The translations under genes were made by a program, and so were the position numbers. Under the pieces are notes generated by a model, which was not told the origin of the DNA, ran no database searches, and saw only the letters and a program-made list of their open reading frames with translations. A stretch of 46,167 nt of DNA, taken from positions 1-46,167 of the forward strand of contig JBBSWQ010000104.1 of NCBI GenBank assembly GCA_038046225.1, written 5' to 3'. Below are positions 32,233 to 36,849 of this stretch, piece by piece. The stretch comes from an archaeon (GTDB lineage: Archaea > Iainarchaeota > Iainarchaeia > Iainarchaeales > VGJJ01). Numbering within the stretch: the first letter of the stretch is position 1; every line of letters starts with the position of its first letter.

Positions 32233-32979
32233 ATGTATCCCGGTTCGGCCAAGAGTGCAGCATACGATCGATCAGCCACCATGTTTAGCCCGGATGGGCG
32301 CTTATACCAAGTGGAGTATGCCTCCAAGATCGTCCAGCAGGGCACCACGGGTGCGGCCTGTATTTACAGGAATGGGGTTGTTTTTGGGGCGGATAAGAAT
32401 ATTACGAGTAAGCTCATGCTCCCCGATTCGGTGGAGAAATTGTTCAAAGTGGATGATCATATCGGCGCGGTCTCTGCCGGTTTGGTAGGGGATGCTCGCC
32501 GCCTCATTCAGGGGGCGCGGGCCAAGGCGCAGGAAAATATCATGTATTACGATGAGCCCATTCACGTGGAGACGTTGGCCAAAGATATTTCGGGCAACAT
32601 GCAGGTCGTGACCCAGTATGGGGGCATGCGTCCCTTTGGTGTTTCTTTCATTTTGGGTGGCGTGGATGAGACGGGTCCCCGTCTCTTTGAGACCGAGCCC
32701 TCCGGGGCATTAGCCGAGTATGTGGCGGTGGCCGTGGGTCAGGGCCGGAAGGAGGCCATGGAGCATTTCGAGAAGAATTTCCAGTCCAATTTTTCCCGTG
32801 AGCAGGCCGTCAAGTTGGTGTTTGGGGCCTTGGAGCAAGGTCTTCCCAAGAATCAGCGTCTGAGTTTGGATCGGGTGGATTTTGGGTATGTGGATAAGGA
32901 CAAGCCCTTTGCTCGAATGGATAAGAATGAGTTGAAAGCCGTGGTATCGGGAAAGGCCTCGGCGAGCGATTCTAAGTAG
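32233..32979 (+). CDS. psmA: Proteasome subunit alpha
   Basis: 248 aa with AYDRSATMFSPDGRLYQVEYA. Confidence 0.92.
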   Translation: MYPGSAKSAAYDRSATMFSPDGRLYQVEYASKIVQQGTTGAACIYRNGVVFGADKNITSKLMLPDSVEKLFKVDDHIGAVSAGLVGDARRLIQGARAKAQENIMYYDEPIHVETLAKDISGNMQVVTQYGGMRPFGVSFILGGVDETGPRLFETEPSGALAEYVAVAVGQGRKEAMEHFEKNFQSNFSREQAVKLVFGALEQGLPKNQRLSLDRVDFGYVDKDKPFARMDKNELKAVVSGKASASDSK

Positions 32980-33074
32980 GGTAGAGTGGATCGTCCATGA
33001 TGGACGCGGGGGAGTTTTTCCCCTCATGAGTGCGCGGGGAGGATGATTTCCCCGCGGGAAGGGTTGTGAAGGAT

Positions 33075-33779
33075 ATGGTAAAATTGGAAGATGCGGTAGT
33101 GGCCCGTTATTCGAAGGATGGGTTGTCATTTGAGATTCTCGTGGATCCCGATTTGGCATTGAAGATGAAGCGGGGCCATTCCGTGAGCCTGGATGATTTG
33201 GTGGCCACCGACACCATCTATTCGGATGCCAAGAAGGGAGATGAGTCCCCGGAGTCGGATATTCAGCGCGTCTTCGGCACCCTGGACATTCGGGAGATCG
33301 CCCCCATTATTGTGAAGGAGGGAGAGGTCCACCTCACCACCGCACAACGAAAGGAGCTGCGGGAGGAGAAGCGCAAGGCCATCATCGATTTCATTTCCCG
33401 CAATGCCATGAACCCCCAGACCGGGACCCCCCACCCCCCCGTGCGGATCGAAAATGCCCTTTCCGAGCTCAAGGTCCAATTCGACGAGTTCAGGGACGTG
33501 GCCTCCCAGGTGAATGATATTCTGCCCAAGCTCAGGCGATTATTGCCCATTTCCATGGAAAAGGTCCAGGTTGCGGTGCGAGTACCCCCTTCTTTCGCCT
33601 CTCCGGCTTTAAACGTGTTGCATGGATATGACATGAAGAAGCAGGAGTGGCAGGGCGATGGGTCCCTGATCGCGGTCATTGAGATCCCGGGTGGGATGCA
33701 GCAGGAATTGTTCGACCGCCTGAACCGCCTATCCCACGGCCAGATCACGACCAAACGGTTGGATACGCCGATGGTGTGA
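33075..33779 (+). CDS. sdo1: SBDS-family ribosome maturation protein
   Basis: Trimmed to ATG 33075. VVARYSKDGLSFEILVDPDLALKMK... Position in the superoperon supports the call. Confidence 0.85.
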   Translation: MVKLEDAVVARYSKDGLSFEILVDPDLALKMKRGHSVSLDDLVATDTIYSDAKKGDESPESDIQRVFGTLDIREIAPIIVKEGEVHLTTAQRKELREEKRKAIIDFISRNAMNPQTGTPHPPVRIENALSELKVQFDEFRDVASQVNDILPKLRRLLPISMEKVQVAVRVPPSFASPALNVLHGYDMKKQEWQGDGSLIAVIEIPGGMQQELFDRLNRLSHGQITTKRLDTPMV

Positions 33780-33827: not shown

Positions 33828-34991
33828 ATGACGAAAGAGATCGTGGTGCCGGGCGAATTGCTGAGCACCGAAAACAAACAGTTGGGCTCGCATACGTTTG
33901 CAGTCGGAGAAAGTATTTTCGCGGATTGTTTAGGTATCCGCAATGAGTCGGATGACCGGTTGTCCGTTGTTCCCTTGCGTGGGAAATATGTTCCGTTGGC
34001 GGATGATGTTATCATTGGCGTCGTCAAGAATGAGAAGTTCGCCGGATACGATGTGGAAATTAATTCCTTCTACGCTTCCTTCGTGAACAAGCAGGATCTT
34101 CGAACCCCCTTGAAGGTGGGTTCCATCATCTCCGCGAAGATTGTGAAGGTGAATGAGTTGAATGAAGCGGACATCGGTATGGTTCGCCCCCTCACGGATG
34201 GGGATATTGTTTCCGTGACCGCGGTCAAGGTTCCTCGGGTTATTGGGAAGAATGCTTCCATGCTCAATGCCATCCGCAATGGCACAGGCTCCAGCGTCAT
34301 GGTGGGGCGCAACGGCCTCGTCTGGGTCAGCGGGGGAAACACCCGCTTGGCCATGGATGCCATCCAACGGATTGAGGAGTTCTCGCACGTGGAGAACTTG
34401 ACGCATGATATTCAATCCTTCCTCGCCGCCAAGAGCGGGCAAGGCATGCCGGACACGCAGGGTCCGGGGAATGAAGAAGCATTTGGGTCGGATGACCAAG
34501 GATTCAGCGGCGGTCGCGGTGGATTTGGCGGCCGTGGTCGCGGGGGATTTAGTGGGGGTCGCGGTGGATTTGGCGGCAACCGGGATCGTGGGGATTTCCG
34601 TCCCCGTCCCAGTATGGGGGGTTCTCGCGACCGTGGGTTCGGTTCCGGTTCAGGTTCCGGATATAGTGGAAACAGGGAACGTAGTTTCGGTGGAAACCGA
34701 GATCGGGGTCCCCCTTCGGGTGGGGATCGCTCCCCGGGTGGTTTTCGTCCCCGCTTCAACGATCGGCGATTAAGTGGGGGAAATAGGGAGATGGATAATT
34801 TTCGTCCCAATCGGAGCTTTGGGGCCCAATACGAGAGCCCTTCCTCCGAGGGATATGCCCCTTCTCCCCCGCGAATGGGTCCCCGGGATCGAGGGATGGG
34901 GGATCGCGGGAATGATCGGGGTTTCGACCGCCGGAAGCGTTTTCCCCCGCGGGAGAATGTGCGAGGGGATGAGGATCCCTCCTTCGAGTAA
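33828..34991 (+). CDS. rrp4: Exosome cap subunit Rrp4 (N-terminal, S1 and KH domains) with a ~184-aa RGG/RDRG-rich C-terminal extension
   Basis: 387 aa. The core ends around aa 203; the tail contains GFSGGRGGFGGRGRGGFSGGRGGFGGNRDRG... Shine-Dalgarno AAGGAGTGA lies upstream. Confidence 0.85.
   Translation: MTKEIVVPGELLSTENKQLGSHTFAVGESIFADCLGIRNESDDRLSVVPLRGKYVPLADDVIIGVVKNEKFAGYDVEINSFYASFVNKQDLRTPLKVGSIISAKIVKVNELNEADIGMVRPLTDGDIVSVTAVKVPRVIGKNASMLNAIRNGTGSSVMVGRNGLVWVSGGNTRLAMDAIQRIEEFSHVENLTHDIQSFLAAKSGQGMPDTQGPGNEEAFGSDDQGFSGGRGGFGGRGRGGFSGGRGGFGGNRDRGDFRPRPSMGGSRDRGFGSGSGSGYSGNRERSFGGNRDRGPPSGGDRSPGGFRPRFNDRRLSGGNREMDNFRPNRSFGAQYESPSSEGYAPSPPRMGPRDRGMGDRGNDRGFDRRKRFPPRENVRGDEDPSFE
34500..34787 (+). 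repeat. Low-complexity RGG/GGF-coding repeats inside rrp4
   Basis: The nucleotide unit ggtcgcggtggatttggcggc occurs twice (34511-34531 and 34557-34577). Further degenerate RG/RDRG units follow. Confidence 0.7.
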
Positions 34992-35074: not shown

Positions 35075-36042
35075 ATGGCTAAAGAAAAAGATACCAAAAT
35101 GGAAACCAAGACCAAGAAGTCGTCCAAGGGCGACGAGAAACTTTATTGGGTCGATGCCAAAGGAAAGCGGGTCGACGGGCGGGGAGTGACGGATTTGCGT
35201 CCCATCAAATACAGGCCGGCATCCTTCCCAATGCGGATGGTTCCTGCTACCTCGAGTGGGGCCAGAATAAAGTGCTGGTCTCCGTGAACGGTCCTCGGGA
35301 AGTATTGCCCAAGCACCAGGCGAATCCGTATCGGGCCATCGTCCGGTACACCTACCGGATGGCCGCTTTTTCCGTGACGGAGCGCAAGAATCCCCGTCCG
35401 GGCAGGAGAGAGATGGAGATATCCAAGGTCTCCGGGGAGGCATTGGAGCGCGCTATCTTCCTCGAACGATTTCCCAATACCGCTATTGATGTTTTCGTGG
35501 AAGTCTTAGACTCAAATGCGGGAACACGCATCGCATGCCTCACGGCCGCCGCGGTGGCGGTGGCGGATGCGGGCATTCCCATGCGGGATTTAGTGACCGG
35601 AATCACGGTGGGTCGTTCCGACGGACACCACCTCGTGGATTTGAACAAGCACGAGGAGGATGCCGATGATGCCGTGGATATGGCCGTGGCCTTCCTTCCC
35701 AATTCCAAGGAAGTGGTGCTCCTCCAGATGGATGGGGAAATATCCTCGGAGGATTACTCCAAGCTCATGCAGGCCGCCATGGAAAACATTGAGAAGGTCT
35801 ACGCGCTCCAGACGAAGGCCCTCAAGGATTCCGTGGAGCAGAAACGACCGGATGTCGTGGAGGGAATGGAGCAATACTTGAACACCCCTCCTGCGGATCA
35901 TTCCAGTGATGCCCATCCCAAGGGGGAGCCCGTCTCCCTCAAGGAGAAGGATCCCTTTTCCTTTGGGGAATCGGATTACTCGGAAGCCGAGGAAGAGAAC
36001 ACCGATGCCGAACACGAAGCGTTCGACGCGGGAAAGGAATAG
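35075..36042 (+). CDS. rrp41: Exosome catalytic-ring subunit Rrp41 (RNase PH-like); the reading frame is broken by a -1 shift at 35207-35211
   Basis: Frame A (35075-35209) gives MAKEKDTK...LYWVDAKGKRVDGRGVTDLRPIK. Frame A-1 (from 35209) gives IQAGILPNADGSCYLEWGQNKVLVSVNGPRE... Joined, they read the canonical ...DGR..DLRPIKIQAGIL.NADGS.YLEWG... GGTGA lies 9 nt upstream of the ATG. Confidence 0.8.
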
Positions 36043-36054
36043 GGGGAATGGATC

Positions 36055-36849
36055 ATGACACAATTGGATATACTCACAGAGTTGCAGCGCAACAAGGTTT
36101 TAGAGTCCCTTGGAAAAGGGAAGCGGGTGTCCGGCCGGGCATTTGATGAATACCGTAAGATTGAGGTATTGACGAATGTCAGCGAGAACGCCAATGGGAG
36201 CGCGCGAATTCGATTAGGAAAGACGGATGTCATCGCGGGGACCAAATTTGGAATTGGGGAACCGTATCCCGATACTCCCGATGAAGGAAGTATTTCCGTT
36301 GGGGCCGAGATGACCCCGCTTGCTTCCCCATTGAATGAAGTGGGCCCCCCCTCCCCCACGGAAGTGGAGCTTTCCCGCGTCGTGGATCGGTGCATCCGCG
36401 AGAGTCACTGCGTGGATGTTTCTTCCCTCTGCCTCGTGCCGGGAGAAAAGGTCCTCTCCCTCTTCATCGACATTTACGCGTTGAATGATGATGGAAATCT
36501 CCTGGACGCTTCCTCCATGGCCTCCTTGGTGGCATTGAACCAGACGCGCCTCCCCAAAGTGGAGGATGGGAAAATAATGTATGGGGAATACGATGGAAAG
36601 ATGCTCGCATTGGCGAACCAGCCCCTGCTCATCACCACCATCAAGGCCTCCAACACCCTCCTCTCGGATGTGGATCTCGGGGAAGAAAAAGCACAGTTCG
36701 CCCGCTTTTCATTCGGGAGCACCGAGAAGGGAATCATCACGGCCTTCCAGAAAGCCGGGTCGGGTTCCTTTTCAGCCAAAGAATTGGAGCAATCCATCGA
36801 GACCGGACTCAAGAATGCCAAGTCCCTGCGCAAGACCCTCAAAGTCTAA
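36055..36849 (+). CDS. rrp42: Exosome ring subunit Rrp42
   Basis: 264 aa; ...RVSGRAFDEYRKIEV...ANGSARIRLGKTDVIAG...DTPDEGSISV...LNDDGNLLDA... Confidence 0.85.
   Translation: MTQLDILTELQRNKVLESLGKGKRVSGRAFDEYRKIEVLTNVSENANGSARIRLGKTDVIAGTKFGIGEPYPDTPDEGSISVGAEMTPLASPLNEVGPPSPTEVELSRVVDRCIRESHCVDVSSLCLVPGEKVLSLFIDIYALNDDGNLLDASSMASLVALNQTRLPKVEDGKIMYGEYDGKMLALANQPLLITTIKASNTLLSDVDLGEEKAQFARFSFGSTEKGIITAFQKAGSGSFSAKELEQSIETGLKNAKSLRKTLKV

Follow-up and report, generated by a model that had tools for sequence, protein, structure and literature searches.

A conserved, arginine/glycine-rich disordered tail on the exosome cap subunit Rrp4 of one Iainarchaeota genus

In the archaeal exosomes with solved structures, the cap subunit Rrp4 is anchored on Rrp41 through its N-terminal domain while its KH domain rests on Rrp42 (PMC11201974). 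In Sulfolobus, Rrp4 and DnaG are the RNA-selective components of the cap (PMC7667871, PMC4227792), the C-terminal domain of DnaG mediating its binding to the exosome (PMC4227792), and RNA selection in archaeal exosomes has so far been assigned to the folded S1 and KH domains of Rrp4 together with DnaG. Disordered, arginine-rich recruitment arms are otherwise known from the bacterial degradosome, as the C-terminal domain of RNase E, and from the eukaryotic exosome, where the basic disordered tail of Rrp6, the “lasso”, attaches to RNA and enhances decay by way of the central channel (PMC5314766). The subject of this work is the rrp4 gene on a 46,167-nt contig (JBBSWQ010000104.1 of assembly GCA_038046225.1, the whole of which is called the window) from a groundwater DPANN archaeon of the Iainarchaeota/Diapherotrites, congeneric metagenome-assembled genomes (MAGs) of which are labelled ‘Ca. 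Iainarchaeum’. The Rrp4 it encodes has the usual three-domain core followed by a long tail rich in arginine-glycine (RG) dipeptides. This tail is genuine, under selection and intrinsically disordered, and no paper on RG or other tails of archaeal Rrp4 was found in the literature.

The gene is present as a single copy (one match) in a genome of 937 kb in 128 contigs. Pfam PF22625 (ECR1_N_2) identifies the N-terminal domain of the product (residues 4-50, E 5.5e-8) and Pfam KH_6/KH_1 the KH region (residues 127-183), with the RRP40_S1 match being weak. The NCBIfam profile for Rrp4, NF003181, aligns residues 3-200 to positions 2-219 of 221 (E 4e-50) and scores 170 bits, which falls under the cut-off of 200, and the window protein is therefore taken as a divergent DPANN member of the family. 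Among the structures of the PDB, the core matches A. fulgidus Rrp4 (2ba0_A) over residues 3-202 (E 4.6e-32), equivalent to residues 2-216 of the 229-residue chain. An AlphaFold2 (AF2) model, built on an alignment of 27 sequences, folds all three core domains with predicted local distance difference test (pLDDT) values of 72-89. The surrounding gene order, psmA-SBDS-rrp4-rrp41-rrp42, is that of the canonical exosome superoperon.

The tail occupies residues 204-387 (184 aa, nt 34437-34988), continues in frame from the core and reads GFSGGRGGFGGRGRGGFSGGRGGFGGNRDRGDFRPRP...FDRRKRFPPRENVRGDEDPSFE. A preliminary description of this DNA had quoted the same segment, and the open reading frame (ORF) reads identically. 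Its account of an Rrp4 core carrying a disordered RG/RGG (arginine-glycine-glycine) extension is likewise borne out, by the Pfam, NCBIfam and PDB matches and by the AF2 model, in which residues 212-384 stay below a pLDDT of 50, adopt no secondary structure and make no structured contact with the core. The tail itself has no sequence match among the solved structures of the PDB. Glycine (25.5%) and arginine (17.4%) dominate its composition, followed by serine (10.3%), proline (9.2%), aspartate (8.7%) and phenylalanine (8.2%), while lysine makes up 0.5%; each tail thus carries ~32 arginines and ~18 phenylalanines or tyrosines (together ~10%). The isoelectric point is 11.1 for the tail, which bears a net charge of ~+8 and has a grand average of hydropathy of -1.55, and 5.95 for the core. 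An R/G/F composition of this kind, with an R:K ratio of ~30:1, is characteristic of RG regions that bind RNA. When ~1045 ORF-based gene calls were scanned for composition, the tail ranked as the second most extreme R/G segment of the genome, behind a segment of ribosomal protein uS5. Counting di/tri-RGG and di/tri-RG motifs in which 0-4 residues may serve as spacer, the window protein yields one di-RGG match, two of tri-RG and four of di-RG. Over stretches of 10 residues the net charge only varies between -2 and +3, with no alternating blocks of charge.

At the DNA level the tail is locally repetitive. The 21-mer GGTCGCGGTGGATTTGGCGGC, quoted earlier as a duplicated unit, occurs twice exactly (34512-34532 and 34557-34577; 0 expected, 100 shuffles), the two copies sitting within a pair of 33-nt repeats of 91% identity, and Tandem Repeats Finder reports an array of period 21 with 3.5 copies. 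Slippage-prone repeats of this kind, together with long spurious ORFs in other frames of the G+C-rich repeat region, are what would be seen if the tail were a non-functional low-complexity expansion, a read-through or an assembly artefact, a reading that is hardly credible in light of the relatives. These were sampled as 40 genomes, covering 16 species of the window's GTDB genus (g1) and 23 other families of the order, with some congeneric tail copies ending at contig ends. A long in-frame Rrp4 was found in 16 of the 16 species of the genus, one of them represented by the closed chromosome CP064981.1, where the operon is intact. The 23 other families all lack it, their frames spanning 206-275 aa. 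Over congener pairs, codon-level ratios of nonsynonymous to synonymous substitution (dN/dS) are 0.076-0.178 in the tail and 0.011-0.056 in the core, and 0.076 against 0.011 in the least-saturated pair (dS 0.2). The tail is thus evolving faster than the core, yet is clearly under purifying selection in this frame. Continuity with the core in all 16 congeners, dN/dS well below 1 and an invariant terminal motif (described below) together establish that the frame is real, and the artefact or junk reading is essentially excluded. As judged by sequence comparison, the tail is as old as the genus, being shared down to ~50% core identity, and is no recent accident; it appears to have arisen at the base of this one Iainarchaeota genus.

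Beyond the genus, tails on Rrp4 are found here and there. A survey of the phylum (215 genomes, 79 genera) gave, among the best matches listed, four further genomes with open frames above 300 aa: G048, G049, G095 and G191. Two of these (G095, G191) were rejected as tails, their length being due to upstream read-through. The other two belong to a second genus (g28, ‘Ca. Diapherotrites archaeon CG08_land_8_20_14_0_20_34_12’) and carry a different tail of ~110-130 aa, made of GPRRDFG/GGFRGGPRR repeats with a C-terminal end ...RPREEF-COOH, which is independent of the tail in the window's genus. In one of them (G049; L055, minus strand, reverse-strand position 1997), a zinc-ribbon ORF that looks L37Ae-like lies downstream of rrp42 and has a long acidic, repetitive C-terminal tail of its own, ...GDESAEETGDESAEETGDESAEEVGDDSDV. 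In a wider sample of 78 species-representative loci from DPANN, Thermoplasmatota and Methanobacteriota (best 80 loci kept), long tails were limited to 12 loci of the window's genus, one RG tail of g28 and one R/E/Q-rich, non-RG tail in Woesearchaeota CG07_land_8_20_14_0_80_44_23 (L125). A cluster within the Nanoarchaeia (P0105/P0121) carries a short, independent RGG tail of ~60 aa. Further unrelated low-complexity tails were seen on the DPANN Rrp4 of P0089 and P0092, with FEPR repeats and NESFGR repeats among DPANN tails. Tails on Rrp4 have, by these comparisons, arisen several times and are recurrent in DPANN while far from routine, and the earlier expectation that an RGG tail is unusual for an archaeal Rrp4 agrees with this. 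The independent RG-rich tails of g28 and the Nanoarchaeia suggest repeated selection for the same solution.

An alignment of 27 tail-bearing orthologues, 48-84% identical overall to the window protein, divides the tail into four parts: a linker, an indel-rich G/R/F block, a mixed-charge region and a C-terminal motif (Table 1). The linker follows the consensus FLAAKTGxGMPDTxGPSNE(D/E)AF. The RGG/FG block is the region richest in indels, both across orthologues and among strains; within a cluster of at least 90% identity, tails vary by small indels in RG and GNRDRGFGG repeats. These strain-level indels agree with the DNA repeats, which indicates that slippage keeps remodelling the RG block. The proposal of a recent expansion by slippage consequently applies to this local block, and fails for the tail as a whole, which is old and selected throughout the genus. 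The mixed-charge segment is a well-mixed polyampholyte, with a fraction of charged residues of 0.32 and a net charge per residue of +0.04, in which FRPRNNFNR and (N/R)RFGxQY(D/E) blocks are kept. At the C-terminus the near-invariant consensus is FDRRKRFPR(D/E)x(1-8)(R)VRGDEDPxF(E/D)-COOH, where R369, D383 and F386 are invariant and K370, R371, F372, G380 and P384 are present in at least 90% of the orthologues.

Table 1. Features of the exosome locus in the window (aa, residues of the respective protein).
Feature	Position	Strand	Basis
rrp4, 387-aa exosome cap subunit with C-terminal disordered tail	33828..34991, including stop codon	+	ORF, Pfam, NCBIfam, PDB
Folded Rrp4 core, aa 1-203: N-terminal domain, S1, KH with VPRVIGK loop	33828..34436	+	NF003181, 2ba0_A, AF2
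Linker SGQGMPDTQGPGNEEAFGSDDQ, KH domain to tail, aa 203-224	34434..34499	+	G204 and P208 invariant, G212 nearly so (27 orthologues)
RGG/FG block GFSGGRGGFGGRGRGGFSGGRGGFGG, aa 225-250	34500..34577	+	Imperfect 21/33-nt repeats
Mixed-charge R/D/G/S/P/F segment, aa 251-365	34578..34922	+	Recurring motifs, alignment
Motifs of the mixed-charge segment	DFRPRP 34593-34610; GFRPRF 34740-34757; NFRPNRSFGAQYE 34797-34835	+	
C-terminal short linear motif FDRRKRFPPRENVRGDEDPSFE-COOH, aa 366-387	34923..34988	+	Conservation in 27 orthologues
rrp41, catalytic ring subunit	35075..36042	+	Pfam RNase_PH, RNase_PH_C; TIGR02065, 272 bits
Acidic Rrp41 C-terminal tail, 69 aa, net -14	35833..36039	+	Extends past the end of the Rrp41 model
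rrp42, ring subunit without tail	36055..36849	+	Pfam RNase_PH
psmA and SBDS, upstream of rrp4	32233..33779	+	Pfam Proteasome, SBDS_N/II/C

Strict RGG motifs are not what the orthologues have in common. Although the RGG boxes noticed at the outset do exist in the window protein, they do not form a conserved element, with tri-RGG found in 5, di-RGG in 10 and di-RG in 21 of the 27 orthologues (the remaining 6 lacking di-RG). Composition is kept (G 10-31%, R 12-22%, F 6-11%, K at most 3%), as are the short motifs. From the alignment, the RGG boxes are best described as the labile, slippage-generated part of the tail, and the composition together with the short motifs as its conserved element. The label “eukaryote-style” given to the RGG/glycine-arginine-rich (GAR) segment can similarly be retained for composition and not for descent, as no homology to eukaryotic GAR domains was found. 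A search with the PF22528 profile (PRMT_C, of protein arginine methyltransferases) gave no match in the genome, control genomes being equally silent, which makes this negative uninformative and leaves arginine methylation of the tail without support.

The tail is most plausibly understood, with somewhat better than even confidence, as a multivalent RNA-recruiting arm with a partner-docking end. This proposal takes up the core identity, the real frame, the predicted disorder, the distribution, the selection, the motif conservation and the co-occurrence with a tail on Rrp41, all observed or computed, and would add to them RNA binding, docking and an effect on the exosome. As the N-terminal and KH domains hold Rrp4 to the ring, a C-terminal tail should project freely from the cap; it would exit the KH domain at the outer rim, so that a Rrp4(3)-Rrp41(3)-Rrp42(3) complex would display three flexible arms with a high content of arginine and aromatic residues. 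Through non-specific, multivalent binding of RNA they may raise the local concentration of substrate and may feed 3' ends to the S1 pore. The C-terminal motif and the FRPR/RFGxQY blocks would act as short linear motifs making specific contact, the likeliest docking partner being another exosome component. Candidates are the acidic tail of Rrp41, through which the basic arm would be neutralised or gated, and DnaG. The RGG/FG block would then serve as an expandable spacer and binding region, its length changing by replication slippage.

The strength of the terminal motif also fits a narrower account, in which the R/G region is a mere tether and the motif recruits a partner outside the exosome (a helicase, the ribosome or the proteasome, for example). 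The motif is far better conserved than the rest of the tail, its terminal F-[E/D] being invariant, and its penultimate aromatic loosely recalls C-termini of the HbYX (hydrophobic-tyrosine-any residue) type, with psmA lying in the same operon. Linkage of psmA to the exosome is a known conserved feature of the archaeal superoperon, and for that reason says nothing specific about this genus; moreover, a hydrophobic residue is often missing at position -3, where S, T or D stands instead. A search of the genome for the full motif (RGDEDP, DEDP.F[ED] and [KR]RF.PR) returned Rrp4 alone. Of the partial strings, RFPPR is shared by DnaG and a 181-aa ORF that seems unrelated, and RFFPR occurs in a helicase; though suggestive, they are too short to weigh. 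The DnaG string (RSRFPPRENS in the window's genome) resembles the RKRFPPRENV near the Rrp4 terminus, and this similar R-F-P-P-R-E-N speaks for the docking account, but in the DnaG of congeners the RFP string recurs only loosely. A tether alone would not need the R>>K, G and F composition that is kept over more than 120 residues, and this account is considered very unlikely.

The first candidate partner of the arm lies in the same operon. The window Rrp41 ends in an acidic tail with the motifs KDPFSFGESDY and DAEHEAFDAGKE-COOH, one 10-residue stretch near its C-terminus having a net charge of -6. This tail aligns in every genome of the genus with an Rrp41 match (15 of 16), where it measures 58-92 aa with a net charge of -10 to -16 and follows the consensus motifs KDP[FML][SA]F..DY and (D/E)EH.A(F/Y)D.GKE-COOH. 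It is absent from sister families (0 of the 22 genomes with a match), in which Rrp41 extends no further than the RNase PH fold. The Rrp4 tails of the genus carry net charges of +7 to +12 over 124-208 residues, with ~14% D/E and R:K of ~30:1; summed per complex, with three copies of each, the Rrp4 tails amount to +21 to +36 and the Rrp41 tails to -30 to -48.

Such a pair could also regulate itself. The Rrp41 tail might act as an RNA mimic and occupy the basic Rrp4 tail, or the RNA path of the cap, until a good substrate displaces it, so that the pair would set substrate selectivity beyond a plain gain in affinity, much like the acidic C-terminal tip of bacterial Hfq. The strict co-occurrence of both tails in the genus, the strongly acidic Rrp41 end with its conserved aromatic-acidic motifs, and the rough cancelling of the summed charges are all consistent with autoregulation of this sort. 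Covariation in charge or length between the two tails is nevertheless not seen, and such a role is judged unlikely.

The recruiting arm with a docking end has itself to be weighed against several observations, which count against it. RNA binding is predicted from composition. With ~14% D/E and a net charge of only +7 to +12, the Rrp4 tail is a weak polycation. The AF2 model, with its 27-sequence alignment, gave no docking site for the C-terminal motif, the whole tail remaining below a pLDDT of 50. Between the Rrp4 and Rrp41 tails there is no meaningful correlation of charge or length among 11 species, and in g28 the RG tail of Rrp4 has no acidic counterpart on Rrp41 (L054, L055), so that RG tails as such do not require the pairing. 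Doubt also hangs over the state of this MAG's exosome, because rrp41 contains a frame break. At ~35204-35209 one base is missing after ATCAA in comparison with three congeners, which places the N-terminal 45 codons (ATG at 35075) and the RNase PH body in different frames; the break may reflect an error of assembly, a pseudogene or recoding.

The second candidate, DnaG, and the remaining cap protein, Csl4, are both encoded in the genome. The suggestion that the tail makes up for missing cap or cofactor proteins is thereby left unsupported, the genome not lacking them. Csl4 (C44:11686-12222 = L056:1501-2037; NCBIfam NF034126, 92 bits) is present in 17 of 17 genomes of the genus. A Pfam EXOSC1 search had given no match in the genome and, in congeners, weak matches to aIF2alpha; the idea of a missing cap protein was rejected when tblastn with Csl4 of sister families located the gene. 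Csl4 of the genus is without the Zn-ribbon cysteines (0-1 Cys, matching profile positions 1-145 of 180 only), whereas Csl4 in three sister families retains CxxC...CxxC. By eye, an rpoL-like ORF follows the Csl4 gene. Archaeal DnaG (C63:2202-3743 = L023:1501-3042; NF003108, 433 bits) has a disordered, R/G/D/M/P-rich insert of ~100 aa between the Toprim and C-terminal domains, and an insert is found in all the congeneric DnaG sequences read, 10 of the 15 matched.

Arginine-rich segments are not confined to the exosome. Eukaryotic RPS2 carries an N-terminal RGG box, and uS5 of the window's genome (C64:1493-2431, plus strand) has one of ~50 aa, GGRGRGGGGGRGGFGGRGGSGGRGDSRGGRGGF, which aligns in 15 of the 15 congeners with a match and is found neither in the sister genus nor in any of the 23 other families of the order. 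In the window's genome and the three congeners read, aIF2alpha (C74:3978-4886, minus strand; L018, L019, L020) has an N-terminal, R/P/S/F-rich disordered extension (FRPRPQGSFRPRPQGSF in G002), its frames measuring 303-356 aa in the genus against 255-265 aa in sister families. A DEAD-box helicase (C106:5928-7625, minus strand) ends in a basic G/R/K/S-rich tail of ~110 aa with GGKRFFPRK and GNRRFG. Together with Rrp4 and DnaG, these cases indicate that the genus has decorated several proteins of its RNA machinery with such segments. Separately, a 693-aa ORF (C103:2483-4561, minus strand) shows a striking G/P/F-rich segment, GGFPSGPGPQGYNSGPQGPPGFGPGGFPGGPGFGPGGPGFGGPGGP.

These decorated proteins would be natural clients if the complex were a scaffold for condensates, an archaeal counterpart of the bacterial ribonucleoprotein bodies (BR-bodies) of RNase E. 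Here the three basic Rrp4 tails and the three acidic Rrp41 tails would act as complementary multivalent stickers, linking complexes to one another and to RNA, and drive phase separation into RNA-decay bodies. As clients these would take up DnaG and the DEAD-box helicase, and perhaps also ribosomal or translation proteins bearing R-rich disordered segments. Oppositely charged tails gained together in one genus, the high sticker content (~32 R and ~18 F/Y per tail) and the R-rich disordered segments on DnaG, the helicase, uS5 and aIF2alpha all speak for this possibility. BR-bodies, for their part, require blocks of positive and negative charge in the disordered tail of the nuclease (10.1101/272286). 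In the Rrp4 tail the charges are well mixed and without blocks, the opposite charge being found on another subunit, Rrp41, and the net charges are modest. The cells are presumably very small, to judge from DPANN genomes of ~0.9-1 Mb, and the RG tail of g28 lacks an acidic partner. It therefore seems doubtful, if worth keeping in view, that one genus rebuilt its exosome as a self-associating, charge-complementary machine able to condense with RNA into an archaeal RNA-decay body; should it be so, archaea would have their first condensate built on an exosome, one whose sticker charges are divided over two subunits.

If the recruiting-arm interpretation is right, disordered arms for recruitment, rich in arginine, and an acidic tail to match them are within the evolutionary reach of the archaeal exosome too, in addition to its folded means of RNA selection. 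Being short, conserved and placed on an easily reconstituted complex, the tails offer a clean system for the effect of an RG region on exosome activity and for asking whether tails of opposite charge gate or condense the complex. They also raise the question of why R-rich disordered segments were added to several proteins of the RNA machinery at once in a DPANN lineage with a reduced genome. For annotation, a warning follows from the low profile score: tailed Rrp4 proteins fall under the NCBIfam cut-off, and annotations often call them no more than ‘KH domain-containing protein’.

Compared with canonical archaeal Rrp4 (A. fulgidus 2BA0, S. solfataricus 2JE6/3L7Z, T. acidophilum 8XIE), the window protein shares the N-terminal/S1/KH core, the VPRVIGK loop of the KH domain and the position in the operon. 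The solved chains, however, are 229-251 aa long and end ~9-14 residues past the aligned core, whereas the window Rrp4 adds 184 disordered residues that have conserved motifs of their own. The best functional analogy is the Rrp6 lasso, likewise a basic disordered tail on an exosome-associated subunit. It differs in being carried by another subunit (archaea being without Rrp6), in being described only as highly basic, and in having no known sequence relationship to the tail described here. Eukaryotic RGG/GAR regions, as in fibrillarin, nucleolin, Gar1 and the uS5/RPS2 N-terminus, resemble it in their F-interspersed RGG/RG repeats, their disorder and their place in RNA machinery; the window tail departs from them in its many D/E residues, its lineage-specific motifs, its unconserved RGG and the lack of detectable homology. 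The disordered C-terminal scaffold of RNase E, the basis of BR-bodies, is similar as an arginine-containing disordered region on a central RNA-decay machine, with charge elements of both signs at hand for multivalent assembly (10.1101/272286), but in the exosome of this genus the charges are split over two subunits, basic on Rrp4 and acidic on Rrp41, instead of alternating as blocks in one chain. Judged from the sequences compared, the most distinctive features are this pairing of a basic tail on the cap with an acidic one on the ring and the conserved terminal motif, and the Rrp4 tail is probably a built-in RNA-catching arm that is absent from all archaeal exosomes studied so far.

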